Shown here one piece after another: positions 13,922 through 58,259 of a stretch of DNA of 64,000 nt. The notes below the pieces were generated by a model. That model did not search any database. It saw nothing but the letters and a program-made list of their open reading frames with translations, and was not told the DNA's origin. Made by a program: the position numbers and the translations under genes. This DNA comes from Acidimicrobiia bacterium (lineage in GTDB: Bacteria > Actinomycetota > Acidimicrobiia > Spongiisociales > UBA11373), in assembly GCA_035464675.1 (NCBI GenBank), contig DATHSA010000033.1, forward strand, positions 1,403-65,402. Direction: 5' to 3'. The first letter of the stretch is position 1; the number at the start of each line of letters is the position of its first letter.

Positions 13922-14053
13922 GACCCGTCGCCCGTCGCCCGGCGCCGGTCGCCCGTCAGAGTGGGGAAGATGGCCTCCTCGGTCGCCTCCCACCGGAGGC
14001 CTGCGGCTGGCGGCTGGCGCCCGTCTGGATGGCGGCTGTCTGGGTGGGGGCTC
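13922..14053. repeat. Heptamer-array element: CCC arm 13922-13958 (ACCCGTC GCCCGTC GCCCGGC GCCGGTC GCCCGTC), small hairpin 13985-14000, G-rich 7-nt-periodic arm 13998-14053
   Basis: Read directly. Fills the entire coaX-lysS intergenic gap. The CCC arm abuts the lysS start codon. Confidence 0.8.
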
Positions 14054-20410: not shown

Positions 20411-20430
20411 TGGCCGCCTATCGGCGGCCA
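20411..20430 (-). promoter_or_regulatory. 8-bp GC stem / 4-nt loop hairpin in the ftsH 5' leader, 12 nt from the ATG
   Basis: TGGCCGCC-tatc-GGCGGCCA read directly. Confidence 0.4.
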
Positions 20431-20431
20431 G

Positions 20432-20510
20432 CCGTTACCCGTTACCCGTTACCCGTTTACCCGTTACCCGTTACCCGTGCGGGGTCGCAAGGAACGGGGA
20501 ACGGGCAACG
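20432..20510. repeat. Heptamer-array element: (CCGTTAC)x6 at 20432-20477 (one 8-nt unit), 13-nt spacer, complementary arm GGAACGGGGAACGGGCAACG at 20491-20510
   Basis: Read directly. Lies in the hpt-ftsH intergenic region. Confidence 0.9.
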
Positions 20511-20528
20511 TGAGAGGGCACCGCCCTC

Positions 20529-24750: not shown

Positions 24751-24825
24751 TGGAGCCGGAGCGGGGATTTGAACCCCGGACCTGCTCATTACGAGTGAGC
24801 TGCTCTACCCCTGAGCTACTCCGGC
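24751..24825 (-). tRNA. tRNA-Thr (anticodon CGU), CCA encoded
   Basis: Reverse complement is GCCGGAGTAGCTCAGGGGTAGAGCAGCTCACTCGTAATGAGCAGGTCCGGGGTTCAAATCCCCGCTCCGGCTCCA. It folds as a cloverleaf: 7-bp acceptor, D arm GCTC/GAGC, anticodon loop CTCGTAA, T arm CGGGG/CCCCG. Confidence 0.95.
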
Positions 24826-24836
24826 GTGAGGCGGGA

Positions 24837-24861
24837 ATGGTAGACCGTTGCCCGTTGCCCG
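24837..24861 (-). promoter_or_regulatory. Putative tRNA-Thr promoter: -10 TACCAT (24842..24837) preceded by two GGGCAAC heptamers (24845-24861)
   Basis: Minus strand reads CGGGCAACGGGCAACGGTCTACCATTCCCGCCTCAC, then the mature tRNA 5' end. Confidence 0.35.
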
Positions 24862-29048: not shown

Positions 29049-29083
29049 GGCCGTGGCCAGTTGGCCGTCCGGTGGTCATGGCT

Positions 29084-29150
29084 CGTCGCCCGTTGCCCGT
29101 TGCCCGATACCCGTGCATCGCTGGCCGGCCAAACGGGAAACGGGAAACGG
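29084..29150. repeat. Heptamer-array element: CGTCGCC CGTTGCC CGTTGCC CGATACC CGTG (29084-29115), spacer, AAACGGG AAACGGG AAACGG (29131-29150)
   Basis: Read directly. Intergenic, between the epimerase-family gene stop and the acyl-CoA dehydrogenase start. Confidence 0.9.
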
Positions 29151-29152
29151 AT

Positions 29153-30108: not shown

Positions 30109-30188
30109 CCGTCGCCCGTCGTCTGCCCGGAGAGCGCACGCACGCGTCGGGATTCCTGCCGGGCGACGGGCGTCGGGCGACCGGCGAC
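30109..30188. repeat. Heptamer-array element: CCGTCGC CCGTCGT CTGCCCGG (30109-30130), 28-nt spacer, CCGGGCGA CGGGCGT CGGGCGA CCGGCGA C (30159-30188)
   Basis: Read directly. Intergenic, between the plsC-like stop and the epimerase-family start. Confidence 0.85.
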
Positions 30189-30193
30189 CCTCC

Positions 30194-33978: not shown

Positions 33979-34033
33979 CGTCTCCCGTCGCCCGTCACCC
34001 GTCTCCCGTCGTCACCCGTTCCCCGTTGCCCGG
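33979..34033. repeat. Heptamer array CGTCTCC CGTCGCC CGTCACC CGTCTCC CGTCGTCACC CGTTCCC CGTTGCC CGG (about 7.5 units)
   Basis: Read directly. Lies 17 nt downstream of the topA stop and 52 nt upstream of the MFS start. The minus (mRNA-sense) strand carries 7 GGG tracts. Confidence 0.9.
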
Positions 34034-34049
34034 TCTGGCTCGCGGCTCA

Positions 34050-36716: not shown

Positions 36717-36799
36717 GGTCTCCGCAGGGGAAGGGACGGGGTTGGTTTACGGCCAGACGGGCGGCATGTCAAGGAGCCGGGCCGGCGACGACGGCCTCC

Positions 36800-39770: not shown

Positions 39771-41825
39771 TCAAATGAAGGCAGACGCGAAGATCAGCGA
39801 CACGATCGTCATCACCTTGATCACGATGTTCATCGCCGGCCCGGCGGTGTCCTTGAAGGGGTCACCGATGGTGTCGCCCACGACGGCGGCCTTGTGGGCG
39901 TCAGAGCCCTTCCCTCCGTAGGCACCGGCCTCGATGAACTTCTTGGCGTTGTCCCAGGCACCGCCGGCGTTCGCCATGAAGATGGCGAGCAGGAAGCCCG
40001 TGATCAGCGCCCCGGCGAGGAATCCTCCCAGGGCCTGGACATCTATGAACCCGATGACGAGCGGAAGCGCAACCGCGAGGGCGCCCGGGATCACCATCTC
40101 TCGAAGCGCCGACGCCGTCGAGATGTCGACGCAGCGGGCGTATTCGGGACGGGCGTCCTCACGACCCTCACGCAGCCCGGGGATCTCGCGGAATTGCCGC
40201 CGCACCTCTTCGATCATCTGGTTGGCAGCTCTGCCCACCGCCTTGATCGTCAGCGCGGCGAACAGGAAGGGGAACATCGCACCGAGGAAGAGCCCGATCG
40301 TGGTCTCGACCTGGATGATGTCGATGACCTCCAGCTGGACCGCCTCTCGGAACGCGAAGAAGAGGGCCAGGGCGGTGACGGCGGCCGACCCGATGGCGAA
40401 GCCCTTGGCCACCGCGGCGGTGGTGTTGCCCAGGGAGTCCAGGGCATCGGTGGCCTGCCGGACCTCCTTGGGGAGATGCGCCATCTCGGCGATGCCGCCG
40501 GCGTTGTCGGCGATCGGGCCGTAGGCGTCGACCGAGACGGTGATGCCCAGAGTGGACAGCACGCCGATGGCGGCGATGGCGATGCCATAGATGCCACCCT
40601 GATCGAACGCCAGATCCCCGGCCCAGTAGGCGCCTCCGATTCCCGCTGCTACCACGATCACGGAGAAGGCGGCCGAGCGCATGCCGTCGGCGATGCCGGC
40701 CAGCACCACGGTTGCCGGCCCCGTCTCCGCCTGCCTGGCGATCTCCTTCACCGGCCGCCAGTGGTCCGAGGTGAACATCTCAGAGAGCTGCCCGATGGCC
40801 AGACCGACCGCGAGGCCGACTACGACGGCGAGGAACAGGCCGATCGGGTTGTCGACGCCTTCGAGGTCGCCGAACAGCCCGTACACCAGGCCGAGCGTGC
40901 CGAGCACGGTGAGGATCGCTGCCGCGTAGGTGCCGCGATGCAGGGCGGCGGCGAGGTTGGTGCCCGTGGGGCGGACCAGGAAGGAGCCGAGGATGGAGGC
41001 TCCCATGCCGACCGCGGCCACGGCGAGCGGGAAGACCAGAGCCTGCGGTAGGAACGGCTGCCCGGCGAAGACGAAGGCGGCGAAGGCGATCGGGGCGACG
41101 AGCGACCCGACGTACGACTCGAACAGGTCGGCACCCATCCCGGCGACGTCGCCGACGTTGTCGCCCACGTTGTCGGCGATCACGGCCGGATTGCGCGGGT
41201 CGTCCTCGGGGATCCCCGCCTCGACCTTGCCCACCAGGTCGGCGCCGACATCGGCCGCCTTGGTGTAGATGCCGCCGCCCACCCTGGCGAACAGCGCGAT
41301 CGAAGACCCCCCCAGACCGACCGCGGTGAGCACCTGGTACGGATCGTCCACCTCGAGCCAGCGGACGAAGACGAGGAAGGCGAGCCCCAGCCCGGCGAGG
41401 CCGAGCCCGGCGACGCTGAAGCCCATGACCGCACCGCCGCGGAAAGCCAATGGAAGCGCCTCGCGCACGCCGCCCCTCCGGGCCGCCTCGGCGGTACGGG
41501 AATTCGCGGCGGTGGCGATCCGCATTCCGATGAAGCCGGCGAAGGCCGAGAGGAGCGCCCCGAACACGTAGGCGAGGGCCCCCCAGGGCCGGCCGTAGTC
41601 GAGGAGGGCGAAGATCAGGCCCGCCATGAGCACGACGAAGACCGCCACCCAGGTGTACTCACGGCGGAGGAACGCCATTGCACCTTCACGGATGGCCGCC
41701 GAGATCTCCCTCATCCGGTCGTTTCCGGCGGGTGCGGCTAGCACCTGACGGGAGAACAGAACGGCCAGCAGCAGGCCCGCTGCGCCTGCGCCGACGGCGA
41801 TGTACAACCAGACGTCCGGATCCAC
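39771..41825 (-). CDS. hppA: Membrane-bound ion-translocating pyrophosphatase, 684 aa
   Basis: GDNVGDVAGMGADLFESY and other H+-PPase signatures. GAGGAG SD, GTG start. Confidence 0.95.
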   Translation of the reverse strand: MDPDVWLYIAVGAGAAGLLLAVLFSRQVLAAPAGNDRMREISAAIREGAMAFLRREYTWVAVFVVLMAGLIFALLDYGRPWGALAYVFGALLSAFAGFIGMRIATAANSRTAEAARRGGVREALPLAFRGGAVMGFSVAGLGLAGLGLAFLVFVRWLEVDDPYQVLTAVGLGGSSIALFARVGGGIYTKAADVGADLVGKVEAGIPEDDPRNPAVIADNVGDNVGDVAGMGADLFESYVGSLVAPIAFAAFVFAGQPFLPQALVFPLAVAAVGMGASILGSFLVRPTGTNLAAALHRGTYAAAILTVLGTLGLVYGLFGDLEGVDNPIGLFLAVVVGLAVGLAIGQLSEMFTSDHWRPVKEIARQAETGPATVVLAGIADGMRSAAFSVIVVAAGIGGAYWAGDLAFDQGGIYGIAIAAIGVLSTLGITVSVDAYGPIADNAGGIAEMAHLPKEVRQATDALDSLGNTTAAVAKGFAIGSAAVTALALFFAFREAVQLEVIDIIQVETTIGLFLGAMFPFLFAALTIKAVGRAANQMIEEVRRQFREIPGLREGREDARPEYARCVDISTASALREMVIPGALAVALPLVIGFIDVQALGGFLAGALITGFLLAIFMANAGGAWDNAKKFIEAGAYGGKGSDAHKAAVVGDTIGDPFKDTAGPAMNIVIKVMTIVSLIFASAFI

Positions 41826-41924
41826 GGGATCTCCTCGGTGACGATGAACCGGCGCAAGGTTAGGCGGGTGGCAGACCGCCCTGGCCGTGAGTCATCCGTT
41901 CTCGCCCTGTCGGCGAATCGCGCT

Positions 41925-43379
41925 TCAGCGCCGCCACAGCTCTCTTGTGAACAGGAGGATGACCGGGAAGATCTCCAGCCTCCCGACGATCATCAGGAAA
42001 CTCAGCAGCCACTTGCCCGCGGCCGGCACTACGAAGTAGTTGGCCGCCGGACCCACTTCCGAGAGACCCGGGCCTATGTTGCCGAGCGCGGATGCCACCG
42101 CGGAGACCGACGTCGGCAGGTCGAAACCCGCACCCGCGACGGACTCGATGGTGGCAAACGCGAACGTGCCTGTCATGAACAGGAACATGTAGAGCAGGAA
42201 GAACGACTGCACGCTCTCCGCCACCTCGTCGGGGACCGGCTGATCGCCCAACTTGGTCACGAACAGCCCCCGGGGATGGATCAGCCTCCTGAGGTCCGCC
42301 TGGGAGCCCTCGTAAAGAACGCCCAACCGGTAGATCTTCACGGATCCGCCCGTAGAGCCTGCCATCCCGCCCACGAACATGAGGCCGACGACGAGCACCT
42401 GCAGGGCGCTCGCCCACTGGCCGAAGTCGGCCGTCGCGTAACCCGTCGTGGTCACGAGAGAAACGGCAGTGAAGAGGCCGTCGCGAACCGTGTCCGCGAT
42501 CTCCGTTCCCCACGTCCCTATCACGACGAACACCGACGCCGCGGCAAGGATCATCGCGTAGAGCCGGAACTCTGGATGCCGCAAATACGCGATTGGGTCA
42601 CGGTCGCGAATAGCTCGATAGTGCAGGGCGAACGACGCCCCCGCGATCACCATGAACACGATCACGACCCACTGCGCATAGGCGTTGAACGCGTCGAGCG
42701 AGGCCGCCCTGGTACCGAACCCGCCGGTCGACATCGTGGTGAAGGAGTGGGTGATCGCGTCGAACAGGGACATGTCGCTGAACGCGAGGAGAGCCGCCTC
42801 GAGAGCCGTGAATGCCACGTAGACGAACCAGAGGCGCTTGGCCGTCTCCCGGAACCGGGGTGTGAGCCGATCGGGATGCGGGCCGGGCGATTCGGCTCTC
42901 GCCAGCTGGACGCCCCCGGTGCCGAGGAGCGGGAGGATCGCGATCGAGAGAATGATGATCCCCATCCCTCCCATCCATTGCGTGAGCGCTCGCCACCAAA
43001 GGATCGAAAATGGCAGGGTCGCCGGGTCCGGCACCACCGAGGCCCCGGTTGTGGTCAGACCGGACGCCGACTCGAAGAAGGCATTCGTCAGACCATTCAT
43101 GGTCCCAGTGATCAAATAGGGAAGGGTCGCCGCGAACGTCATGGCGAACCAGGAGAGCCCGACGGCTGCAAAGCCTTCTCCCGTAGTCAGGACGCCGTTC
43201 GTCGCGAATACGCGACGACCGACATCGCCGACCACGATGACGATCGCTGCGGCGACCGAAATCTCAGCGGCCTCCGCCCATTCGCTGTAGATGACCGCAA
43301 CCGCGGCTGCGGAGATCATTGCGGCACCAGTGGCCTCGACCACCGAGAACACGATGTGGGCGAGCCTTCGGAGGGACAC
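41925..43379 (-). CDS. trkH: TrkH-family potassium uptake protein, 484 aa
   Basis: Multi-TM with TrkH-type selectivity-filter-like repeats (TTTGAS, MSTGGFG, VTTTGYA, GSTGGS). 3 nt downstream of trkA. Confidence 0.9.
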   Translation of the reverse strand: MSLRRLAHIVFSVVEATGAAMISAAAVAVIYSEWAEAAEISVAAAIVIVVGDVGRRVFATNGVLTTGEGFAAVGLSWFAMTFAATLPYLITGTMNGLTNAFFESASGLTTTGASVVPDPATLPFSILWWRALTQWMGGMGIIILSIAILPLLGTGGVQLARAESPGPHPDRLTPRFRETAKRLWFVYVAFTALEAALLAFSDMSLFDAITHSFTTMSTGGFGTRAASLDAFNAYAQWVVIVFMVIAGASFALHYRAIRDRDPIAYLRHPEFRLYAMILAAASVFVVIGTWGTEIADTVRDGLFTAVSLVTTTGYATADFGQWASALQVLVVGLMFVGGMAGSTGGSVKIYRLGVLYEGSQADLRRLIHPRGLFVTKLGDQPVPDEVAESVQSFFLLYMFLFMTGTFAFATIESVAGAGFDLPTSVSAVASALGNIGPGLSEVGPAANYFVVPAAGKWLLSFLMIVGRLEIFPVILLFTRELWRR

Positions 43380-43382
43380 GGC

Positions 43383-44711
43383 TCAACCGAACAGACGCTC
43401 GACCGCCCCGATCGCCGCGGGCAGTGCGATGGCTATCAGGCGGTCTCCGCTCTCGATCACGGTCGTTCCGTGAGGAATGAACGCTTCCTTCCCCCGCACG
43501 ATCCCGCCGACGATCGCCGATTTGGGAAGCCCTATCTCTGTGAGGGACTTGCCGATCGATTCACTTCCTTCGGGTACCTGAAGCTCTATCGCCTCGGCGT
43601 CTGTGTCCTCGAAAGTCGCCACAGAGTGGATGGTTCCACGACGAACGAGACGGAGGATCTCGTTGGCAGCGGCGAGTCTCGTGGACACGCCTGCGTCCAG
43701 GCCGTGTCCGGCGAGCAGGGCCACGTACTCGATCCTCGAGAACCGGGCGACTGCAGTGGGGATGCCCAGAGCCTTGCCCACCAGACAGCCGAGGATATTC
43801 ACCTCGTCCCAGCCCGAGAGCCCCAGGACGACATCAGCCTTCTCCACACCCTCCGTCTGCAACACCTTCGGGTCGGTGGGATCTCCCTGCACGACGACGA
43901 GGCGGTCGTACTTCGCCGCGAGGTCGAGCGCGCGGCTGGCCTCCGAATCCACCAACACCGTGTGGATTCCACTTCTTACGAACAGCTCTGCCGTCATGAG
44001 CGCCAGCCGGGTTGCTCCGAGAATGAACACCTTTCGGGCGGGGTGCTCTTCGACACCCATCAGTTTGAGTGCCTCGTTCGCCGACTTCCCACTCGAGACG
44101 ACGAGTACGTGGTCCCCGGCAGCGACGCTCGAGTCCCCCCGGCCAATGATTGTCTCTCCCTCGCGGACCAAGGCGGCCACTATCCAATCCCAACCCGTGA
44201 CCCTGCGCCGGAGTTCCGCCAGCGTGATCCCATCGAGTGGTGCACCCGGTTGAACGCGTCCTCCGAAGAGACTGATCTGTCCCCCGGCGAACTCCACGAC
44301 CTCCGAGACTCCTCCCCGACGAACCAGAAGGAGCAGCTCCCGCGTCAGGGCCTCGACCGGATCGATGACGACGTCGACGCCGTGCAAGTCGAGGTCTTCT
44401 CTCAGGGTTGGGTCCTGCACCCGCGCCACACGTCGGGGGACCCCCAGACGTGCTGCCGCTTGACAGGCCAGGATGTTGACTGCGTCAGAGGATGTCACCG
44501 CGATCAGAAGAGCAGCGTCCTCCACACCAGCGGCCTCCAAGGCGTGCACACTCGCGCCGTTCTCGTTGATCACCAGGCAGTCGACCGAGTTCTGCAGCTC
44601 CTCCGCCTGGGCGGGATCGGACTCGATGACTACAACATCCTGCCCTTCGAAGGCGAGACGCTCGGCCAGGTGTGAACCGACCGCTCCGGCTCCGACGATC
44701 ACGATGCGCAT
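43383..44711 (-). CDS. trkA: Trk system NAD-binding component TrkA (two RCK modules), 442 aa
   Basis: MRIVIVGAGAVGSHLA and a second Rossmann motif KVFILGATRLAL. Confidence 0.9.
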   Translation of the reverse strand: MRIVIVGAGAVGSHLAERLAFEGQDVVVIESDPAQAEELQNSVDCLVINENGASVHALEAAGVEDAALLIAVTSSDAVNILACQAAARLGVPRRVARVQDPTLREDLDLHGVDVVIDPVEALTRELLLLVRRGGVSEVVEFAGGQISLFGGRVQPGAPLDGITLAELRRRVTGWDWIVAALVREGETIIGRGDSSVAAGDHVLVVSSGKSANEALKLMGVEEHPARKVFILGATRLALMTAELFVRSGIHTVLVDSEASRALDLAAKYDRLVVVQGDPTDPKVLQTEGVEKADVVLGLSGWDEVNILGCLVGKALGIPTAVARFSRIEYVALLAGHGLDAGVSTRLAAANEILRLVRRGTIHSVATFEDTDAEAIELQVPEGSESIGKSLTEIGLPKSAIVGGIVRGKEAFIPHGTTVIESGDRLIAIALPAAIGAVERLFG

Positions 44712-44720
44712 GGGAGGAGA

Positions 44721-44750
44721 CGTTACCCGTTACCGGTCGCCCGTCACCCG
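44721..44750. repeat. Heptamer array CGTTACC CGTTACC GGTCGCC CGTCACC CG, 9 nt upstream of the trkA ATG
   Basis: Read directly. CCC arm of the trkA/nhaA divergent-region element. Confidence 0.85.
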
Positions 44751-44870
44751 AGCGTCGTCGGGTCTTCTGCCCACGAGTTGCCCGATCGTCGAGAGCCTCC
44801 CAAGGCCCCCGGCGAGACTCCTTGCCTCCGTCCCGGCATGACGGCGGCGGCCGGGTCGTTCACCGGACAG

Positions 44871-44951
44871 CAGGGGTGACGGGAGACGGGAAACGATTCG
44901 ACTCCCGAGCCAACCGGAACCCCTCGAGAGACCGTTACCCTGCGGGGTCCC
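44871..44951 (+). repeat. GGG arm (CAGGGGTGACGGGAGACGGGAAACG) plus a conserved ~75-nt module upstream of nhaA, including the -10-like TACCCT at 44936-44941
   Basis: Shares GACGGGAGACGGG, ACGATTCG, CCGA.CCAAC and GACC(C)GTT(T)ACC blocks, in the same order, with 50268-50341. Confidence 0.7.
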
Positions 44952-46355
44952 GTGGCCAAAGTCCCGCCGCCTGCCGCCGAGCACATCACCTGGCTCGAGT
45001 CGGAGCGAACCGTGCCCAGACGGTTCATCCGACCGCTCCTGCGATTCACCTACATCGAGTCGGCGGGAGGCGGCGTCCTCTTGCTGGCCGCGGTGGCCGC
45101 CCTCATCTGGGCCAACTCACCGGTGAGCGACTCCTACGAGTCGTTCTGGGCCACGCAATTCGAGCTGACCATCGGACCGCTCCACCTGGTGGAGAACCTG
45201 AGACACGTCGTGAACGACGGCCTCATGACGATCTTCTTCTTCGTCGTCGGCCTCGAGATCAAGCGCGAGCTCGTCAACGGGGATCTCCGCAACCCGAAGG
45301 CCGCCGCGCTCCCCGTCGTCGCCGCCCTCGGGGGGATGATCCTCCCCGCCGTCATCTATGTGGTGATCGCCGGGGGCACGGAGGGGGCCTTCCACGGCTG
45401 GGGGATCCCGATGGCGACCGACATCGCCTTCGCGGTCGGTGTGGTCGCCCTCCTCGGCAGCCGCGTCCCGGTCGGTGGAAAGCTGTTCCTGCTCGCCCTG
45501 GCGATAGTCGACGACATCGGCGCAATCTCCGTCATCGCGATCTTCTACACCGAGGATCTCGCCCTGGGTTACCTGCTGGCGACCCTCGGAATGCTCGCCG
45601 CGATGTGGGCGGCACAGCGTGTCCGGATCCGTTCCCTCGCCTTCTACGTCCCCATGGGATTTCTGGCGTGGTTCTTCCTCTTCGAGAGCGGGGTCCATGC
45701 CACCCTCGCCGGTGTAGCAATCGGGCTCCTCACCCCTGCTCGGTCGATGTACTCGGACCGTGAGTACCACGACCGCACGGTTCGGATCCTCGAGCGCTAC
45801 GACTTCGACGTGGAGGCACCGCGGGGGGAGGAGAGGATCGATTTCGACGCACTCGAGGTGTCAGACGTCGCAAGGGAGTCGGTGGCTCCCCTCTATAGGA
45901 TCGAGAACAAGCTCCACCCCTGGTCGTCGTTCCTCGTGGTGCCGATCTTCGCCCTCGCCAACGCCGGTGTGAGCTTCGCCGGCGTCGACCTCCTGGAGGC
46001 GGCGACCCATCCGGTCGCCCTCGGCGTCTCGATGGGCCTGCTCGTGGGCAAGACCGTCGGCATCGGCCTGTTCGCATGGCTGGCGGTCCGCCTCCGCCTC
46101 GGTGTGCTGCCCCGGAACATCACGTGGCGCCACATCATCGGCCTCGCCGCGGTGGCAGGGATCGGCTTCACCGTGTCCCTCTTCGTCTCGGACCTCGCCT
46201 TCCGCGCCAGCGATCTCGAAGACCTCTCCAAGACCGGCATCTTCATAGGATCGGCCCTGGCGGGGATCCTCGGGTACCTCATCCTCCGACCACGGGCGCC
46301 TCGAGACGCCGCCGTCCCCCAATCCCCGGAGGCCGGTAACGTCGCCGCTCGATGA
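44952..46355 (+). CDS. nhaA: Na+/H+ antiporter NhaA, 467 aa
   Basis: NhaA signature FFFVVGLEIKRELVNGDL and the WGIPMATDIAFAVG region. GTG start. Confidence 0.92.
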   Translation: MAKVPPPAAEHITWLESERTVPRRFIRPLLRFTYIESAGGGVLLLAAVAALIWANSPVSDSYESFWATQFELTIGPLHLVENLRHVVNDGLMTIFFFVVGLEIKRELVNGDLRNPKAAALPVVAALGGMILPAVIYVVIAGGTEGAFHGWGIPMATDIAFAVGVVALLGSRVPVGGKLFLLALAIVDDIGAISVIAIFYTEDLALGYLLATLGMLAAMWAAQRVRIRSLAFYVPMGFLAWFFLFESGVHATLAGVAIGLLTPARSMYSDREYHDRTVRILERYDFDVEAPRGEERIDFDALEVSDVARESVAPLYRIENKLHPWSSFLVVPIFALANAGVSFAGVDLLEAATHPVALGVSMGLLVGKTVGIGLFAWLAVRLRLGVLPRNITWRHIIGLAAVAGIGFTVSLFVSDLAFRASDLEDLSKTGIFIGSALAGILGYLILRPRAPRDAAVPQSPEAGNVAAR

Positions 46356-47584
46356 GGCAGAGTCGGCCGCTCGGCCCGATCGTCGCGCTTCTCGTCACCG
46401 TCGCCGCGTGCGGTGGCGGTGAGGCGGCGACCACGACGACGACGGTGATGCCGACCACCACCACCAGCGCACCAACGACGACGACGACGCTCGGCCCGAC
46501 GACGACGATGGCTCCGCAGTGGGTGAGCGTTCCGATCGAAATGTCCCTGGAGGGCGACGACGAGGCCGCCGAGGTCTTGGCCGACTTCTACGCATGGATC
46601 GGCGACCGCTCGCATCCGACCCCCGCTGCCGCAGCAGGACTGCTCGACCATCTCGCAGACGTCCACCCCGAATCGGGAAGCACCTTCGAAGCCGAGCTCC
46701 ATGCGGCCGAGGTGGAGGGCGGTCGGGTGGCCGTCGTCACTGCCGGCGACGACGTCGTCCTCCTCGCCGACGAAGGATCGGGCTGGCGCGTGGTCGGAGC
46801 CGACCTTGCCCGCTTCGATCTGGATCCGTGGTTCGGCGAGGAGGTACGGCATGTCCTGGTCCTCGGGACCGATGCTCGCCCCGGGGAGTCTCAGCCCCTC
46901 TACCGGGCAGACAGCATCCACATTCTCTCCTCGAACTCGGCGCGCGGCGGCGGCTCGATCCTGGGGTTCCCCCGCGACACCTATGTGGAGGCGTCCTACG
47001 GTTTCGACAAGTTCACGCATGTGAACGCTCTGGCGGAGACCCACTCGTCCGAGATGGTGGACATCGCGGAACGAATCTCGGGTCTCCCGATCGAGGGCTA
47101 CATCCTCACCGGCTTCACGAACTTCCGTCGGCTCGTCGATCAGTTCGGAGGCGTGGTCGTCGACGTTCCGTACTTCATAGATGACTGGCGCGCCGAGGCC
47201 TACATCCTCCGGGGAGTGCAGCGGTTGTTCGGCGACGATGCCCTCGGCTTCAGCCGCACTCGACGCATCACGGGCGGCGACTTCGCCCGCTCGGCCAACC
47301 AGGGAAAGGTGATCCTGGCAGCACTCGTCGAGACCCTCGGAAGGGACATCACTCAGCTCCCGACACTGATCGCCATTCTCATCGACAACACCTGGACCGA
47401 TCTGTCGCCCGGCGATCTGCTCACGCTCGGCGCCACCGCGTTCCTCGTGGACCCGCAGCGGGTGACCAACGAGGTGCTGCCGGGCTCCGTCGAACTTCGT
47501 AACGGCTCGTCGGTGGTGATACTGGACGACGCAGGCGCCGACGCGATCTTCGACGATCTACGCGACGGGATCCTGGACGGCTGA
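46352..47584 (+). CDS. LCP (LytR-CpsA-Psr) family lipoprotein, 410 aa
   Basis: Lipobox LLVTVAACGGG and a Thr-rich linker. LCP core (VLVLGTDARPGE...RADSIHILS...GFPRDTYV...GDFARSANQ). ATGA overlap with nhaA. Confidence 0.85.
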   Translation: MRQSRPLGPIVALLVTVAACGGGEAATTTTTVMPTTTTSAPTTTTTLGPTTTMAPQWVSVPIEMSLEGDDEAAEVLADFYAWIGDRSHPTPAAAAGLLDHLADVHPESGSTFEAELHAAEVEGGRVAVVTAGDDVVLLADEGSGWRVVGADLARFDLDPWFGEEVRHVLVLGTDARPGESQPLYRADSIHILSSNSARGGGSILGFPRDTYVEASYGFDKFTHVNALAETHSSEMVDIAERISGLPIEGYILTGFTNFRRLVDQFGGVVVDVPYFIDDWRAEAYILRGVQRLFGDDALGFSRTRRITGGDFARSANQGKVILAALVETLGRDITQLPTLIAILIDNTWTDLSPGDLLTLGATAFLVDPQRVTNEVLPGSVELRNGSSVVILDDAGADAIFDDLRDGILDG

Positions 47585-47614
47585 GCGGCCCCGTCCGAAC
47601 GCCGTATTCCGACG

Positions 47615-50212
47615 TCACGGCCGCGACGCCCCCGCTCTCGTTCGCTCGACGATCCACTGCACCAGTCCCGCGGCCGCCACCAGGGTGAGCGTGACGCCGA
47701 GGGCTGCGACCCCCAGGGGCTCGGTCTCGAACAACACCTGACCGAAGGGCGTGTAGACCACGGCCGCGTGGAGTGCGGTCGAACCGGCGAGAGACCAGAG
47801 CAGCAGACGATTGGGCGTGCCCTTCACCCTGGCCCGGACCTCGTAGGCATGCACCAGCTGGACGAGCACCAGAGTCGTGAAGATCATCGTCCGCACAACG
47901 GGCCACTCGCTGCTCAGGACGTAGTGGCCGAGGAGGAGCGCGCCGAGTGCGGCGCTCGCGAGGATGGCGCCCCTCGAGGCGAGGAGGCCCCATCGCTGCA
48001 ACACCCCGTGCGCCGGCTCCGGAGGCCTGTCCATCACGCCCTCTGTCGCCGGGTCGACCCCGAGGGCCAGCGCCGGCAGCCCATCGGTGACGAGGTTCAT
48101 CCACAGCAACTGCGTCGCCAGCAGGGGTTCGCCGAGGCCGCCCCAGACGAGAAACCCGACGAACATCACGAAGACCTCCGACGCGTTGCAGGCGAGGAGG
48201 TACCAGACGACCCGCTTCAGGTTCCCAAAGATCGTCCTGCCTTCGCGCACGGCGGCGACGATCGAGGCGAAGTTGTCGTCGGCGAGCACGATCGACGACG
48301 CCTCCTTCGCCACATCGGTGCCGCTTCCCATCGCCACGCCGATGTCGGCCGACCTCAGTGCCGGGGCGTCGTTGACCCCGTCGCCGGTCATGGCGACGAT
48401 CTCGCCGCGCCGGCGCCACGCCTCGACGATCTTCACCTTGTCCAGGGGATCGATGCGAGAGAAGACCCGGTAGCGGTCGATGTCGGCTGCGAGCTCTTCG
48501 GCGTCCTGCTCGCGGAGCCGATCACCGCCCATCACTGCTCCGCCACTCTCGATGATTCCCACGTCCGTGGCCACGGCCTCGGCCGTCACGGCGTGGTCGC
48601 CCGTGACCATGACGACGCGGATCCCGGCCCGACGCGCCTCCTCGACCGCCGGCAACGCCTCCGGGCGGACCGCATCGCTCATTCCCACCATCGCCACGAG
48701 GACCAGGCCGCTCTCGGCGTCACCGGCCTCGGAGGGCATCTCATCCGAGTGGCGATAGGCCAGTGCCAGGGTGCGCCACCCCTTCTCGGCGAGACCGGTG
48801 GCGACATCCAGGTCGGCCTGGCGGCGATCGTCCGCGAGGGGCGCCGGGCCGCCGGCGGTCTCGATCCGATCGCATCGCTCGAGGACCACCTCGGGCGCCC
48901 CCTTGACTGCCACCAGGTACCCGTCGCCGACGTCGTGCACGGTCGACATCCGCTTGCGGCGCGAGTCGAACGCATGCTCGTCGACCCGGGGGGCGCGCTC
49001 CCTGATTCCATCCGGGTCGGCGCCACCGGCCACCGCGGCCCGGACCACGGCGAGTTCGGTGGGGTCGCCGATCCACCCCTCCTTGCCCTTCCGGGCGTCA
49101 CTACAGAGGGCGGCGATCTCGAAGAACCGCGCCGACCGCCGATCGCCAGGATCGAGCTCCCGAGGGGCAAGGCGCAGGTCGGCCAGCAGCACCTCCTGCA
49201 CTTCGAGGCGATTCTGCGTGAGGGTTCCCGTCTTGTCGGTGCAGATCACCGATGCGGAGCCCAACGCCTCGACCGCGGGGAGCCTCCGGACGATGGCATT
49301 CCGTTTGGCCATTCGCTGCACGCCCCGGGACAGCGTGATCGTCACGACCGCGGGGAGGCCCTCCGGGATGGCGGCGACTGCGAGAGCGACGGCGGTGAGG
49401 AACATCGCCTCGGCTGGATTCCCCCGCCACCATCCGGCCAGGAACACGATCCCGGCGGTGGCGACGGCGATCGCCGCCAGTCGCTTGCCCACACTGTCCA
49501 ACTCGACCTGAAGAGGGGTTGGCGGCTCCTCCTCGGCCAGCGACTCGGCGATCCGCCCGAACTCGGTGGACGGGCCTGTCGCCACGACGATCGCGGCACC
49601 CCGTCCTGACGCGATGGTGGTTCCGGCGAACACCATCGATGTCCGGTCCCCGAGTGAGCCGGCGTGCTCCACCGGGTCGGCCGCCTTCGCCACGGGGAGG
49701 GACTCACCGGTCAGGGAGGCCTCATCCACTTCGAGATGGATCGCCTCGGCGACGCGGGCATCTGCGGCTACGAGAACCCCGGCCTCGAGGATGATCAAGT
49801 CGCCGGGTACGACCTCACGGGTGGGGACCGACACCTCACGCCCCTCCCGCACCAGGACCGCTTCCGGCGCAGCCATCTCCCGCAGGCGGGCGAGAGCCTG
49901 CTCGGCGCGCGCCTCCTGGAGGAAGCCGAGAACGGTGTTCAGCACCACGATCGCAGCGATGACGCCGGCATCGATCCACTCGTCGAGCAACGCCCCACTG
50001 ATGACGGCGGCGACCAGCAAGAGCCAGACGAGCGCGCTCCTGAGCTGACGGGCCAGCAGCGTGAGCGTCCCCGGGCCCTCGTCCGACCTGATCTCGTTCG
50101 GTCCGTGCTCGCCGAGCCGCCGGGAAGCCTCTTCCTCACCGAGACCACGCCGCTTATCGGTGTCGAGACGATCTGATACCTCGTCGGCGGTAAGGGTGTG
50201 CCAGGAGGTCAC
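47615..50212 (-). CDS. Cation-transporting P-type ATPase (P2 type, Ca2+/Mg2+-like), 865 aa
   Basis: Start GTG 50212 (TSWHTLTADEVSDRL, cation-ATPase N domain). ICTDKTGTLTQN, TGDGVNDAPAL. Confidence 0.9.
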   Translation of the reverse strand: MTSWHTLTADEVSDRLDTDKRRGLGEEEASRRLGEHGPNEIRSDEGPGTLTLLARQLRSALVWLLLVAAVISGALLDEWIDAGVIAAIVVLNTVLGFLQEARAEQALARLREMAAPEAVLVREGREVSVPTREVVPGDLIILEAGVLVAADARVAEAIHLEVDEASLTGESLPVAKAADPVEHAGSLGDRTSMVFAGTTIASGRGAAIVVATGPSTEFGRIAESLAEEEPPTPLQVELDSVGKRLAAIAVATAGIVFLAGWWRGNPAEAMFLTAVALAVAAIPEGLPAVVTITLSRGVQRMAKRNAIVRRLPAVEALGSASVICTDKTGTLTQNRLEVQEVLLADLRLAPRELDPGDRRSARFFEIAALCSDARKGKEGWIGDPTELAVVRAAVAGGADPDGIRERAPRVDEHAFDSRRKRMSTVHDVGDGYLVAVKGAPEVVLERCDRIETAGGPAPLADDRRQADLDVATGLAEKGWRTLALAYRHSDEMPSEAGDAESGLVLVAMVGMSDAVRPEALPAVEEARRAGIRVVMVTGDHAVTAEAVATDVGIIESGGAVMGGDRLREQDAEELAADIDRYRVFSRIDPLDKVKIVEAWRRRGEIVAMTGDGVNDAPALRSADIGVAMGSGTDVAKEASSIVLADDNFASIVAAVREGRTIFGNLKRVVWYLLACNASEVFVMFVGFLVWGGLGEPLLATQLLWMNLVTDGLPALALGVDPATEGVMDRPPEPAHGVLQRWGLLASRGAILASAALGALLLGHYVLSSEWPVVRTMIFTTLVLVQLVHAYEVRARVKGTPNRLLLWSLAGSTALHAAVVYTPFGQVLFETEPLGVAALGVTLTLVAAAGLVQWIVERTRAGASRP

Positions 50213-50230
50213 GCGGCAAGGTTGGCAGGT

Positions 50231-50294
50231 CCGACGCCCGACGCCCGACGCCCGATGCCCGGCAACACGGACGGGAGACGGGCGACTGGAGACG
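50231..50294. repeat. Heptamer-array element: CCGACGC x3 + CCGATGC CCGG (50231-50262), 5-nt spacer, CGGACGGGAGACGGGCGACTGGAGACG (50268-50294)
   Basis: Read directly. Centre of the 129-nt divergent region between the P-type ATPase and the helicase. Confidence 0.9.
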
Positions 50295-50328
50295 ATTCGT
50301 CCGACCCAACAACGTCCGGCGACCCGTT

Positions 50329-50334
50329 TACCGT
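50329..50334 (+). promoter_or_regulatory. Putative -10 box TACCGT, 7 nt upstream of helicase ATG 50342 (leaderless layout)
   Basis: TACCGT-ccacgcg-ATG read directly. No SD. Confidence 0.4.
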
Positions 50335-50341
50335 CCACGCG

Positions 50342-52588
50342 ATGCACCCCGCCGTCGCGTCATGGCTCGCCGATCCCGAGCGGGCCGACCGGATCGCCCA
50401 CGTGGAGACGGTCGCCGAGCGCCGGGCCATCTTCGAGGACCTCGACCCGCCGATGCCGGACGACCTACGGGCCGCTCTCGCCGAACGAGGGATCGACCGC
50501 CTGTACCGCCACCAGGCGCAGGCGATCAAGCGCGCCCGGGCCGGGACGCACACGGTGGTCGTGGCCGGCACGGCTTCGGGAAAGTCCCTGGGCTATCAGG
50601 TGCCGATCCTGGAGGCGGCACTGGAGGACCGGGCCGCGACGGCCCTCCTCCTCTTCCCGACCAAGGCCCTCGCGCGCGATCAGTTCCGGGCGATGCATGC
50701 CTTCGGCATCCCCGAGGTGACACCGGTCGTCTATGACGGCGACACCGACTCGGAGACGAGATCATGGGCCCGCAAGCACGCCACGGTCGTCATGACCAAC
50801 CCCGACATGCTGCACGTCGGGATCCTGCCCTCGCACGGCAAGTGGGCCACATTCTTCCGGAGGCTCCAGTACGTGGTGATCGACGAGGTCCACGTGCTCC
50901 GGGGCATCTTCGGAAGCCACGTCGGCAACGTGGTGCGGAGGCTGCGCCGGGTGGCCCGTCACTACGGCGCCGATCCCACATTCCTCGGGTCGTCGGCGAC
51001 GATCGGCAACCCCGGGGAGCTGATGTCGGCGCTCACCGGCCTGCCCGTCGATGTCGTCGAACAGGACGCCTCGCCCGCGGGCGTGCGGCACTACGTCCTG
51101 TGGAATCCCGAGTTGGAGGAGGACGACACCCGGCGCAGCCCCCTCGCCGAGACCACGGATCTGTTTGTCGACCTGGTCGGTCGGGGCGAGCACACCATCG
51201 CCTTCGCCCGCAGCCGAAAGGGAGTGGAGCTGGTCTACCGGTGGGCTCGCGAGCGGCTCGACCTCGACCTCGCCGATCGCATCGCTCCGTACCGGGCGGG
51301 ATACCTGCCGGAACAGCGTCGCGAGATCGAGGAGCGCCTGTTCTCCGGCGAGCTGCTCGGCGTCACTGCCACCAACGCATTGGAACTGGGGATCGACGTG
51401 GGCGGCCTCGACGCCGCCATCGTCGCCACATTCCCGGGGACGGTCGCCTCGTTCCGCCAGCAGACCGGACGAGCGGGGAGATCCACCGAGGAGTCGTTGT
51501 CGGTGCTGGTCGCCGGCCAGGACGCCCTCGATCAATGGTACGTGAACCACCCCGGAGACCTGTTCGGCCGACCCTCCGAGGCAGCGGTGGTGAACCCGGC
51601 CAATCCTCACATCCTCGCCGGCCACATGGGCTGCGCCGCCTACGAGATCCCGATGCTCTCCGAGGACGCAGTGGCCACCTTTGGACCGGAGGTCGAGTCG
51701 CTGGCTGCCGACCTCGTCTCCGAGGGCGCGCTGCGCATCCGGAACGGACGGCTCCTCTGGGCCGGGCGAGGCGCCCCGGCTCCTGCCATCGACATCCGGA
51801 CTGCCGGAGGGCCGCCCTACACCATCGTCGACACCCGAGGTGAGGTGATGGGGACCGTCGACGAGAGCCGCGTGTTCTCACAGGCCCATCCCGGTGCGGT
51901 CTACCTCCACCAGGGCGACTCGTATGTGATCGAGAACCTGTCGGTGGAGGACCGGCTGGTGCGGGCCCGCCCCGGCGAGGTCGGGTACTACACGCAGCCG
52001 GAGGAGGACACCACCGTCGAGGTCCGCGTCGTGCTGCGTTCAGGCGCGGTCGGGCGCTTCGGGCACAGGCTGGGCGATGTCGAGGTCGAATCGCGCGTCA
52101 CCGGGTTCAAGCGCAAGAAGATCTCGGACCGCAGCGTCATCTCGTACGAGCCTCTCGACCTGCCGCCACGGCGCTACGAGACCCAGGCGATCTGGTTCAC
52201 GGTGGACGACGACCTGCTGCGCGATGCCGGGATCGCCACCGTCGACCTGCCGGGCACCCTCCACGCCGCCGAGCACACCGGGATCGCCATGCTCCCCCTC
52301 TTCGCCATCTGCGACCGGTGGGACATCGGCGGGCTGTCGACACCCTTCCACGCCGCGACCGGCATGCCCGTCTGGTTCATCTACGACGGCTACCCCGGCG
52401 GCGCCGGAATCGCCCCCCTCGCCTATCAGGCCGGCACGCGTCACCTCTCGGCGACGCTCGAGGCGCTGCGCACCTGCCCCTGTGACACCGGTTGTCCCTC
52501 ATGCGTCCAGTCGCCCAAGTGCGGCAACTTCAACGAGCCCCTGGACAAGGCGGGGGCGATCCGGCTGCTCGAGGTGGGCCTGGGGTGA
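50342..52588 (+). CDS. DEAD/DEAH-box helicase with C-terminal 4-Cys DUF1998 (MrfA/Rv3649-like 'helicase/secretion neighbourhood' helicase), 748 aa
   Basis: Internal ATG 50342 of ORF 50198..52588. Walker A GTASGKS, DEVH box, C-terminal CPCDTGCPSCVQSPKCGN. Confidence 0.9.
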   Translation: MHPAVASWLADPERADRIAHVETVAERRAIFEDLDPPMPDDLRAALAERGIDRLYRHQAQAIKRARAGTHTVVVAGTASGKSLGYQVPILEAALEDRAATALLLFPTKALARDQFRAMHAFGIPEVTPVVYDGDTDSETRSWARKHATVVMTNPDMLHVGILPSHGKWATFFRRLQYVVIDEVHVLRGIFGSHVGNVVRRLRRVARHYGADPTFLGSSATIGNPGELMSALTGLPVDVVEQDASPAGVRHYVLWNPELEEDDTRRSPLAETTDLFVDLVGRGEHTIAFARSRKGVELVYRWARERLDLDLADRIAPYRAGYLPEQRREIEERLFSGELLGVTATNALELGIDVGGLDAAIVATFPGTVASFRQQTGRAGRSTEESLSVLVAGQDALDQWYVNHPGDLFGRPSEAAVVNPANPHILAGHMGCAAYEIPMLSEDAVATFGPEVESLAADLVSEGALRIRNGRLLWAGRGAPAPAIDIRTAGGPPYTIVDTRGEVMGTVDESRVFSQAHPGAVYLHQGDSYVIENLSVEDRLVRARPGEVGYYTQPEEDTTVEVRVVLRSGAVGRFGHRLGDVEVESRVTGFKRKKISDRSVISYEPLDLPPRRYETQAIWFTVDDDLLRDAGIATVDLPGTLHAAEHTGIAMLPLFAICDRWDIGGLSTPFHAATGMPVWFIYDGYPGGAGIAPLAYQAGTRHLSATLEALRTCPCDTGCPSCVQSPKCGNFNEPLDKAGAIRLLEVGLG

Positions 52589-57416: not shown

Positions 57417-58193
57417 ATGGAGGCCGCATTCTTCGATCTCGACAAGACGGTGATCGCCCGATCGTCCACCCTGGCGTTCACCGGTCGGCTGTACAAGGCG
57501 GGGATGCTCCGCCGGCACACACTCATCCGCGCCGGCATGGGGCAGCTGATGTACATGCTGTTCGGAGCCGACGAGGACCAGCTGGCGAAGGCACGCGACG
57601 CCATGCTCCAGCTGACCAAGGGGTGGGACCGCGCCGAAATCGAGCGAATCGTCGAGGAGGCGCTCGAGGAGGTCGTCGCCCCCATCGTCTACGCCGAGGC
57701 CCTCTTCCTGATCGACGAGCACATGCGGGAGGGGCGCAAGGTGTTCATCGTCTCGGCCAGCCCCCACGAGGTGGTACATCCACTCTCGCGATACATCGGT
57801 GTCGAAGACGTGATCGCCACCCGGGCCAGGGTGGACGGGGAGGGTCGATACACCGGAGAGGTGGAACTCTATGCCTACGGGCCCGACAAGGCCAACGCTG
57901 TCCGGGCGGTGGCCGAGGAACAGGGTATCTCCCTCGAGAACTCGTACGCCTACTCGGACAGCGCCACCGACATCCCCCTGCTCGAACTGGTCGGACATCC
58001 CCATGCGGTGAACCCCGAAAAGGAACTCCGGGCCGTGGCCGAGGAGCGGGGCTGGCCGATCCTGGAGTTTCAGCGGCAGGTCAGCCTCACCGAGCGCCTC
58101 ACCCGGCCGGTCCCCCTCATATCGGGTGCAACGGTCGCCGCCGTGATCGGAGCGGCGATCGCATGGGTGCTTCTGCGGAAGAAGCGCGGGTAG
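57417..58193 (+). CDS. HAD-IB family hydrolase (SerB-like, Rv3661-like) with C-terminal TM segment, 258 aa
   Basis: Motif I FFDLDKTV, motif IV YSDSATD. Divergent from the tad operon. Confidence 0.85.
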
Positions 58194-58259
58194 CCCGTCG
58201 CCCGTCGCCGGTCACCCGTCCCCCACAGCCGCGGGGAGCCGGGGCTGGGGACCGGGAAC
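58193..58259. repeat. Heptamer-array element: GCCCGTC GCCCGTC GCCGGTC ACCCGTC CCCC (58193-58224), spacer, GCGGGGAGCCGGGGCTGGGGACCGGGAAC (58231-58259)
   Basis: Read directly. Starts at the last base of the HAD stop codon. The G arm has four G3-4 tracts with 2-4 nt loops. Confidence 0.9.

Follow-up and report, generated by a model that had tools for sequence, protein, structure and literature searches.

Two divergent intergenic regions in a 64,000-nt stretch of DNA from an Acidimicrobiia bacterium (hereafter, the window) share several short sequence blocks in the same order, one region preceding the nhaA gene and the other a DEXH-box helicase gene. The initial annotation described these blocks as a conserved module of ~75 nt and suggested a dispersed cassette or a shared cis-regulatory site. 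Does the resemblance reflect one element that is present twice, one regulatory site that serves two promoters, or two promoters that happen to lie beside the same kind of repeat?

At the first locus (A), trkA (43383-44711, minus strand; TrkA_N and TrkA_C Pfam domains) is divergent from nhaA, a Na+/H+ antiporter gene (44952-46355, plus strand; Pfam PF06965, E=3.9e-146). At the second locus (B), a P-type cation ATPase gene (47615-50212, minus strand) is divergent from a gene for a DEXH-box helicase with an MrfA Zn-binding (MZB) domain (50342-52588, plus strand), both identified by Pfam. Each spacer contains two arms of tandem heptamers. The left arms are C-rich on the plus strand and, as had been pointed out, adjoin the starts of the divergent genes: the arm at 44721-44750 reads toward trkA, on the minus strand, as GGGTGAC GGGCGAC CGGTAAC GGGTAAC, and the arm at 50231-50261 (also assigned to the minus strand) adjoins the ATPase start and consists of four CCGACGC units on the plus strand. 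The right arms are G-rich on the plus strand, with GGGTGAC GGGAGAC GGGAA (a dispersed CGGG-family simple repeat) at 44874-44892 and GACGGGA GACGGGC GACTGGA G at 50270-50291. The block ACGATTCG follows at 44893-44900 and 50292-50299, respectively, and a second plus-strand block is recognized by sequence match as CCGAGCCAAC at 44905-44914 and CCGACCCAAC at 50301-50310. The -10-like boxes TACCCT (44936-44941) and TACCGT (50329-50334) end 10 nt before the GTG of nhaA (44952) and 7 nt before the ATG of the helicase gene (50342). All blocks that had been listed, including GACGGGAGACGGG and CCGANCCAAC, were thus located.

We think it probable that these regions are separate native promoters of nhaA and the helicase gene, each of which by chance adjoins the G-rich arm of a paired heptanucleotide array. 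The proposed module, whose blocks do occur in order, would then be a composite of three parts: the terminal units of a hypervariable (G/A)ACGGGN repeat family; a generic promoter with a TACNNT -10 box 7-10 nt before the start codon and no Shine-Dalgarno sequence; and ~17 bases, ACGATTCG plus CGANCCAAC, situated some 30-55 nt ahead of the start and belonging to each gene's own promoter-upstream DNA, with a mutual resemblance close to chance. The arrays would fill the unconstrained DNA between divergent promoters in this Acidimicrobiia clade, changing in unit family and copy number from lineage to lineage, and would end where functional constraint on the promoter begins.

The heptamer arrays are a widespread feature of this DNA. 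TRF and a period-7 scan revealed 17 period-7 runs in the window versus 0-1 in shuffled sequences, and no tandem runs at periods of 8-11 were found in the window. Intergenic arrays of at least three tandem 7-nt units are present, and the two-arm layout, C-rich and then G-rich, is the rule for spacers that carry them. Arrays also occur between convergent genes and directly after stop codons and are therefore not promoter-specific. The 13-mer GACGGGAGACGGG, identical at 13 of 13 positions between 44878-44890 and 50270-50282, corresponds to two units of a repeat family found at ~10 intergenic sites in the window; it has a third identical copy at 33998-34010 and 21 matches with at most two mismatches in the window, and is thus ordinary array sequence, not a hallmark of a module. 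Likewise, the third copy proposed upstream of the acyl-CoA dehydrogenase gene (29041-29115, minus strand) proved to be an array only (29084-29114, minus strand). It lacks ACGATTCG and was missed both by a profile built from A and B and by a relaxed two-block scan.

Comparison with related lineages (designated by L numbers) revealed how rapidly the arrays change. Strains that share an identical NhaA differ in copy number, 4 versus 5 (L051-L053), and the unit family at one locus is swapped between species with ~77-90% protein identity. The right arm on the nhaA side has another unit sequence in L016 and L015, and the array is missing in L047. On the helicase side, this arm is (GACGGGC)x3 in L021, belongs to other unit families in L016, L050, and L051, and is absent in L014, L049, and L002. 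Length or sequence therefore varies among close relatives at both loci, and the arrays, as judged by these comparisons, behave as independent, hypervariable simple repeats, the very interpretation that had been set aside in the initial annotation.

The promoters themselves follow a pattern common in this clade. In four lineages, TANNNT begins 12-16 nt before the start codon in about one third of called genes, and these genes have no Shine-Dalgarno sequence. The nhaA and helicase genes conform: their boxes end within the expected ~6-10 nt of the start, and no Shine-Dalgarno motif (GGAG, GAGG, or AGGA) occurs within 18 nt of either start codon. The distance between box and start is kept in orthologues of both genes. 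All nhaA orthologues examined have TACYCT 8-10 nt ahead of GTG, whether their spacers carry arrays or not, and TACCGT followed by 7-8 nt and ATG is conserved at the helicase gene in eight lineages (L002, L014, L016, L020, L021, L049, L050, and L051). A scan of both spacers for E. coli-type promoters and terminators found none, as expected at this G+C content. CCAAC was considered as a -35 element and rejected, its spacing to the -10 box being 21, 21, 25, 18, and 5 nt in five promoters; ECF-type GGAAC...CGTT and LexA-box readings, judged by eye, failed on spacing or half-sites.

Leaderless promoters of Actinobacteria, in which a TANNNT -10 element places the transcription start site at or adjoining the start codon, have been mapped in Mycobacterium tuberculosis (PMC3898074) and surveyed more broadly (PMC3160421). 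The promoters described here resemble this sigma-A-type class in the TACNNT box ending 7-10 nt before ATG or GTG, in the lack of both a Shine-Dalgarno sequence and a recognizable -35 box at nhaA and the helicase gene, in the recurrence of the layout at many first genes of the Acidimicrobiia clade, and in the retention of the -10 box in orthologues. They differ from the mapped examples in being known from sequence alone, and the 10-nt gap between the nhaA box and GTG would allow a leader of 3-4 nt. By this pattern, the TANNNT box near the start is a general leaderless signature of the clade, and transcription presumably begins at or just before the start codon, the helicase promoter being predicted as leaderless and the nhaA promoter as leaderless or with a very short leader.

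Arrays and promoters can be separated from each other. The trkA-nhaA spacer of L047 is only 87 nt long and has no arrays, yet it retains GACGATTCGTC...GGAACCAACCGG...TACTCT, and the ACGATTCG...CCAACCGG blocks are present; this stretch is therefore native promoter DNA and not part of an array cassette. More generally, ACGATTCG is unchanged in the nhaA promoters of L016/L011, L015, and L047, 35 nt from the -10 box as in the window (34 nt in L047), and the second block is identical in L015 (CGAGCCAACCGG) and reads GGAACCAACCGG in L047 and CGAACCAAAC in L016. Conversely, in the nhaA promoter of L021 the array stops only 5 nt short of the -10 box, and ACGATTCG is absent. At the helicase locus, lineages other than the window and L021 keep the -10 box and start with a different array family or none, and have no ACGATTC. 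The L047 blocks without arrays, the L021 array without ACGATTCG, and the family swaps at the helicase locus together show, at the sequence level, that the arrays are separable from the promoter blocks; orthologues retain both the -10 box and the start codon. A search for NhaA in contigs of representative genomes found L003 (80%) and L002 (77%) as the nearest, with promoters too diverged for fine footprinting.

With the arrays and the core promoter accounted for, the only resemblance particular to the two loci is the 17 nt of ACGATTCG plus CGANCCAAC. Masking of the heptamers, which had been named as part of a refuting outcome, left a weak similarity. Local alignment of A and B with arrays masked gave a score of 21, reached by 66 of 2000 shuffles (p~0.03), and global alignment gave a score reached by 7 of 2000 (p~0.0035), both values being uncorrected for the choice of this pair out of many possible. 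An nhmmer profile built from three nhaA orthologues after removal of the array matched B at E=28. Among 210 real pairs of array flanks, A-B ranks 3rd to 8th and is outscored by a non-orthologous pair (arrays 29084-29114 and 13924-13957), and it falls outside the top 25 of 3240 control pairs. In addition, the exact 16-mer ACGATTCGTCCGACCC also occurs within the nhaA coding region of L002 and the 15-mer ACGATTCCTCCGACG antisense in trkA of L014, so matches of this length arise by chance in this composition. The idea that block B derives from the coding sequence of nhaA or trkA was considered and rejected, as the identity ends after 15-16 nt. On these figures, the 17-base resemblance appears to lie at the edge of chance and does not exceed that of the best pairs arising by chance. 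In a genome this rich in repeats, with 68% G+C, exact matches of 13-16 nt do not count as evidence for homology.

Several observations leave room for shared function or common origin. ACGATTC is invariant in all six promoters that were aligned (four nhaA and two helicase lineages), and at A and B alike it follows the final array unit immediately and in phase. The occurrences of CCGANCCAAC at 44905-44914 and 50301-50310 are its sole exact matches in the window, and 5 of the 10 matches to CGANCCAA[AC] in 148 kb fall in nhaA or helicase promoters. A position-aware estimate, made post hoc, puts the coincidence of 5 shared bases behind the array with a 9-mer only a few bases away at ~10^-3 to a few 10^-2.

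One reading of this kind is the suggested shared cis-regulatory site. ACGATTC(G)-N(1-5)-CGANCCAAC could be the operator or activator site of one factor that co-regulates trkA/nhaA and P-type ATPase/helicase, e.g., in ion homeostasis or stress. ACGATTC is fixed across the six promoters while adjacent bases vary; locus B and L047 contain a 5-1-5 palindrome, GACGAtTCGTC; the blocks are found some 30-55 nt before the start codon, which would be a common position for an activator; cation-transport genes flank both spacers; and at loci A and B, in L016, in L015, and in L021 the arrays end exactly at the block, as at an edge of constrained DNA. However, the motif is not placed uniformly with respect to the core promoter: it lies 35 nt from the -10 box at nhaA (34 in L047) but 29 nt from it at locus B, and the spacing is 32 nt in the helicase promoter of L021, where ACGATTCC is followed by TCCGAC. 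The second block is not kept in this L021 promoter, and in L016 it reads CCGAGCCAAC only 5 nt from the -10 box. Moreover, the motif is missing from the nhaA promoters of L014, L021, L048, L003, L002, and L051 and from the helicase promoters of L016, L014, L020, L049, L050, and L051, no third gene with it was found in 182 kb, and no candidate regulator was identified. On balance, we consider a shared operator unlikely.

Common origin could also have come about by ectopic copying, in either direction, of an array and ~25 nt of its flank between the nhaA and helicase promoters, through heptamer-primed gene conversion or recombination in the ancestor that the window's lineage shared with L021. At the helicase locus, ACGATTC occurs only in these two lineages, both of which have CGGG-family arrays; locus B of the window (ACGATTCGTCCGACCCAAC) is nearest to the ACGATTCGTC variants at nhaA in L016 and L047; and the similarity begins at the array and fades after ~25 nt. 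The similarity is nevertheless too short and weak to establish homology, the units adjoining the block evolve fast and are uninformative, and neither a longer shared tract nor a recombination junction is seen. We regard this scenario as doubtful. Comparably speculative is a model in which the paired arrays, with their many unit families, would not result from passive slippage; a clade-specific process would make or maintain them by seeding on short inter-promoter palindromes, and ACGATTCG/CGANCCAAC would be a protein-bound boundary or operator that stops the spread of arrays and couples expression of the flanking ion-homeostasis genes (trkA/nhaA and P-type ATPase/helicase); we hold this to be improbable.

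Far less likely is the mobile cassette, i.e., a MITE-like dispersed element consisting of an array and a ready-made promoter that inserts upstream of genes. It would explain the block order common to the two loci, but the array-free L047 orthologue keeps the promoter blocks, and lineages free of arrays retain orthologous -10 boxes and start codons. When the filled site of L011 is compared with the empty site of L047, the sole additional sequence is that of the two arms (55 nt), and the target-site duplication that had been considered possible is absent. No terminal inverted repeats were found. Searches of the window, of ~120 kb from related contigs, and of metagenomes turned up no further copies, and the profile built from A and B found only A and B orthologues in 182 kb. 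The metagenome scan with CGGGNNACGATTCGN{1,5}CGANCCAA returned 25 matches, one nhaA orthologue and 24 array-free chance matches, in a collection without the three JGI contigs (L011-L013) that carry the sequence, and its power is low. Like MITEs and REP/BIME-type elements, the arrays are scattered through intergenic DNA, with inverted symmetry and hairpin potential in some arm pairs; unlike them, they have no conserved full-length unit, terminal inverted repeats, or target-site duplication, and consist of pure tandem heptamers of varying family. The sequence comparisons thus contradict the cassette. Hairpin or cruciform formation was rejected as a general property of arm pairs: some have z of -2.2 to -4.7, and the helicase-locus and 58189 pairs have z of -1.1 and -0.2.

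Least likely of all, to the point of being negligible, is that the helicase-side module is coding, an N-terminal extension from ATG 50255, as in the metagenome gene call that begins there, inside the repeat array, in a frame open from 50177: all orthologous proteins begin MHP(A/V)V at the equivalent of ATG 50342, the upstream DNA is not kept as protein and has arrays of varying family and length, one of its codons is AGA, and G+C at its third positions is ~76% (hand count) versus 88% for the gene. The AGA codon is generally rare in high-G+C genomes. By conservation, the true start is ATG 50342, and the call is ~29 codons too long.

Under the favoured reading of native promoters beside simple repeats, the module resolves into known kinds: leaderless actinobacterial promoters and heptameric intergenic repeats. 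Present evidence does not justify listing it as a new mobile element or cis-regulatory family. Intergenic heptamers have been described as GGGAATC in Xanthomonas and GGGGA(T/C)T in Nostoc (PMC4692102), as three tandemly repeated heptanucleotides in the cyanobacterium Calothrix (cited in PMC4692102), and as TAACTGA in Beggiatoaceae (PMC4679880). The arrays found here are likewise tandem 7-nt units, nearly all intergenic and near gene ends. As with the Xanthomonas/Nostoc type, there are G-rich families, some inverted pairs could form stem-loops, and length and sequence differ widely among close relatives. They differ in their Acidimicrobiia host, in the coexistence of many unit families, in the change of family by lineage at one locus, and in having two arms per spacer, C-rich and then G-rich. 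Also distinct are the two G-rich arms studied here, whose GGG tracts (three in arm A and two in arm B) fall short of the four needed for a canonical intramolecular G-quadruplex; at least four are present in some arrays, including the C-rich arm at 50231-50261, with four on the minus strand. No report of heptamer repeats in the class Acidimicrobiia was found in the literature searched. A further parallel is the Vibrio cholerae ctxAB promoter, which has regulator-bound TTTTGAT heptad repeats upstream (bioRxiv 10.1101/2021.05.14.444153). Those repeats are also tandem heptamers directly upstream of a promoter with strain-variable copy number, whereas the arrays described here have no known binding protein and are not promoter-specific.

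Searches of Rfam at E<=1 found no RNA family in either region, and at the gathering score the sole match in the whole window is a tRNA at 24754-24825. The arrays, with their many families, replacement at the same locus, and copy-number polymorphism between strains, are the more interesting object. If their expansion to promoter edges alters expression, they would supply this uncultured Acidimicrobiia lineage with rapidly arising regulatory variation. At trkA, a leaderless-type TAACGT box 8 nt upstream of the ATG is made by the last array unit.

The window has a G+C content of 68%, and its closest named relatives are uncultured Acidimicrobiia/Actinomycetota MAGs (NhaA identity 77-80%). Two of its regions, A (44871-44951, upstream of nhaA) and B (50268-50341, upstream of a DEXH helicase gene), had been described in the initial annotation as sharing a ~75-nt module of ordered blocks, and all of these blocks were found at the positions reported. 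Region A lies in the divergent spacer that separates trkA, which starts at 44711 on the minus strand, from nhaA, whose GTG is at 44952 on the plus strand; region B lies between a P-type cation ATPase gene (minus strand, start 50212) and the helicase gene (plus strand, encoding an MrfA Zn-binding domain). From 50177 onward the helicase reading frame is free of stop codons, and one metagenome gene call (contig L001, 15304) begins at the ATG equivalent to 50255, within the C-rich array and ~29 codons upstream of the conserved ATG at 50342. Since all orthologues begin with MHP(A/V)V at the equivalent of 50342, and the DNA 5' of this ATG is not conserved as protein among them, the module is non-coding; the call at 50255 is probably a start-codon miscall due to the open frame. 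Positions 39771-50212 form an ion-homeostasis gene cluster (H+-pyrophosphatase, TrkH, TrkA, NhaA and P-type cation ATPase), and in related lineages a further TrkAH set is present along with a two-component pair resembling KdpD/KdpE (L011 2672-4950).

In the four lineages with gene calls, about one third of genes, e.g., trkA, nhaA, the LytR-family gene, helicase, HAD, PMSR and luciferase-like genes, have a TANNNT box whose first base lies 12-16 nt ahead of the start codon, and lack a Shine-Dalgarno sequence. Actinobacteria are known to have leaderless promoters of this layout (PMC3898074, PMC3160421), with which the putative promoters in A and B agree in every sequence criterion. All orthologues examined keep TACYCT at nhaA and TACCGT at the helicase gene, whether or not they have arrays. 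Thus, both the -10-like box and its spacing from the start codon agree with the first description, but are generic to the clade rather than specific to the module, and the additional GACC(C)GTT(T) similarity is not conserved in helicase orthologues L016, L021 and L020. The LytR_cpsA_psr gene overlaps the nhaA stop codon, and its ATG is preceded by a separate stretch, GGTAACGTCGCC(N)5 (window 46330-46355; equivalents in L016, L021 and L014). This stretch is kept in four lineages, contains a TAACGT box that begins 15 nt ahead of the ATG, and could be an internal leaderless promoter within the nhaA end or mere coding constraint.

Tandem Repeats Finder and a period-7 scan revealed heptamer arrays with the unit CCCGNNN/NNNCGGG in window spacers near 13924, 20432/20491, 24845, 29084/29131, 30160, 33979/34110, 44721/44874, 50231/50270 and 58193 (extents 13921-14023, 20429-20512, 24840-24861, 29081-29152, 30158-30189, 33979-34142, 44721-44895, 50227-50294 and 58189-58250). 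The window has 17 period-7 runs versus 0-1 in shuffles, and no excess of tandem runs at periods 8-11. The 13/13 block GACGGGAGACGGG occurs again at 33998-34010, and allowing up to 2 mismatches gives 21 matches where 12 are expected; it is ordinary repeat sequence and shows only that both spacers carry one repeat family. On the trkA side the last array unit provides the -10 box (TAACGT), on the ATPase side the array stops 18 nt before the gene start, and on the nhaA and helicase sides it stops at ACGATTCG. The G-rich arms of A and B contain fewer GGG tracts than a canonical G-quadruplex requires, and no matching family was found in Rfam. Period-7 arrays are nearly all intergenic, often beginning right at a neighbouring gene's stop or start codon; the array at 34110-34140 is inside an open frame (34050-36746, minus strand), which makes the 3' end of that gene provisional. 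A short CCGTTGC array starts ~20 nt from the 5' end of a tRNA gene (24754-24825, minus strand; together 24754-24861). The lead-in TCTTGCTGG(A/C)GGC of GCTGGGG-type arrays recurs at three unrelated loci (window ~34095-34140; L016 ~7120-7145 and ~15235-15260), so some array families may have conserved boundary units.

With arrays and the -10 box set aside, the parts specific to A and B are ACGATTCG and CGANCCAAC. With arrays masked, the A-B local alignment scored 21; 66 of 2000 dinucleotide shuffles scored as high, and 7 of 2000 matched the global score, both figures being uncorrected for pair selection. An HMM profile built on three nhaA promoters from ACGATTCG onward matched B only at E=28 in ~170 kb, and about a dozen unrelated matches outscored it. 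In an all-versus-all comparison of 81 flanks after CGGG repeats, A-B was not one of the 25 best of 3240 pairs. It ranked 3rd to 8th of the 210 pairs formed by 21 true array ends and was outscored by a non-orthologous pair. In favour of a specific resemblance, exact CCGANCCAAC occurs within the window in A and B only, and at both loci ACGATTC comes directly after the array and in phase with it, a coincidence that our own post hoc, position-aware estimate places at 10^-3 to a few 10^-2. Short exact matches call for caution, as words of 15-16 nt recur by chance in this composition: the 16-mer ACGATTCGTCCGACCC of window block B is found in the nhaA coding region of L002 (10069-10084), and trkA of L014 has, in antisense (270-284), the 15-mer ACGATTCCTCCGACG of L021 block B. 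Identity ends with the word in both cases, and we take these recurrences to be chance.

A profile built from A and B, searched against 182 kb of clade sequence, gave full-length matches only to orthologues (L015, L016 and L047 for A; L021 for B), and all remaining matches covered only that portion of the model which represents the array. The diverged third copy proposed upstream of the acyl-CoA dehydrogenase gene (29041-29115, minus strand) was not recovered, and a relaxed two-block scan gave background counts only. A metagenome scan with CGGGNNACGATTCGN{1,5}CGANCCAA yielded 25 matches, one being the nhaA promoter of the L011 lineage and the other 24 array-free, unrelated chance sequences (our own chance estimate is ~18). 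The searches suggest that there are no further copies in the window, the clade contigs and a metagenome collection that lacks several contigs known to carry the sequence.

We compared the trkA-nhaA spacer with nine further lineages. ACGATTCG, located 35 nt upstream of the -10 box (34 in L047), and (C/G)GA(G/A)CCAA(C/A)C are kept at nhaA in the window, L011/L016, L015 and L047. The 87-nt spacer of L047 has no arrays and reads ...GGCCGTG/ACGATTCGTCTCAGGAACCAACCGG...TACTCT..., the slash marking the junction; L011 has 55 additional bases (C-rich arm, CACGAG and G-rich arm) between CCGT and ACGATTCG. These empty and filled sites correspond to L047 1896-1982 (GGCCGTG/ACGATTCG) and L011 9857-10000. 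The L047 junction CGT.ACG is a mini-palindrome, each half of which matches the beginning of one arm, suggesting symmetric expansion from, or hairpin-mediated deletion to, a palindromic seed. In L021, the array reaches to 5 nt from the nhaA -10 box and ACGATTCG is absent; L048 carries another unit family (GAGCCAA/CTTGRYT). The block is also missing at nhaA in L014, L003, L002 and L051. Upstream of nhaA in L014 (1570-1640), an imperfect ~20-nt tandem duplication, CGAATGACCCGAGGGTAGGC/CGAATGCGAGGGTCGGAG, occupies the position of ACGATTCG...CGAGCC in other lineages.

The helicase spacer was compared with eight further lineages. CGGG-type arrays followed by ACGATTC(G/C)TCCGAC occur only in the window (50213-50341) and L021 (8724-8853). 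The orthologous spacer carries (GAGCCAA)3 and (CTTGAYT)6 in L016 (9848-10000), (CGGCCAA)4 and (CCGTGGG)4 in L050 (222-400), and three other unit families in L051 (9324-9516), L052 and L053; those of L014 (6937-7027), L049 (667-789) and L002 have no arrays. The arrays of this spacer are replaced between lineages, not merely changed in length, with the -10 box TACCGT and the start codon unchanged. CCGTCGA copies number 4 versus 5 between strains, a strain-level repeat polymorphism; L051 (9324-9530), L052 (2860-3072) and L053 (3622-3830) encode identical NhaA and differ in this array, which also has a variant unit, CCGTAGA.

Because L047 has the block without arrays, and helicase spacers have other families or none, arrays and promoter blocks are separable. 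This rules out the array-plus-promoter cassette of the initial annotation: arrays are gained, lost and switched between families, and each gene retains a -10 box and start of its own. The initial observation holds in part, and the shared cis-regulatory site also proposed is possible but unproven. We consider it fairly probable that each region is a composite of the gene's own leaderless promoter and adjacent heptamer arrays. The arrays would fill the DNA between two divergent core promoters, extending until constrained sequence is met. ACGATTC is invariant in six promoters, suggesting that the ACGATTCG stretch is constrained to some degree at each locus. One factor might read this stretch as a shared operator at both loci; however, its distance to the -10 box differs (35 nt at nhaA versus 29-32 nt at the helicase gene), it is missing from most orthologues, and no third gene with it was found, and we regard this explanation as rather unlikely. 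Ectopic copying between arrays is, in our judgment, improbable. A mobile cassette is highly improbable, and the 55 extra bases of L011 show no target-site duplication relative to the empty site of L047.

The array system around the module merits separate follow-up more than the module itself. Heptameric intergenic simple repeats have been described in Xanthomonas and Nostoc (PMC4692102, where three tandem heptanucleotides of Calothrix are cited as well) and in Beggiatoaceae (PMC4679880). Like these, the present arrays are intergenic, lie near gene ends, form inverted pairs in some cases and vary among relatives. They are set apart by their host lineage, by how many unit families coexist, and by the replacement of one family with another at a single locus. 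Other families in relatives include GCTGGGG/CCAGCCN (up to 16 copies), GCAATTG/GCAATTC, GAGCCAA/CTTGAYT, CGGCCAA/CCGTGGG, GGTWGGC, CCGTCGA, GCGTATC and GGCAGAG. Such arrays are located in L016 (7077-7244, 9868-9954, 15170-15274, 19127-19224, 20073-20156 and 20841-20959), L021 (305-328 and 11129-11183), L050 (~250-370), L051 (9340-9500), L002 (1155-1382 and 19273-19304) and L003 (290-312). Most spacers with arrays in relatives have two arms, C-rich first and then G-rich, on either strand.
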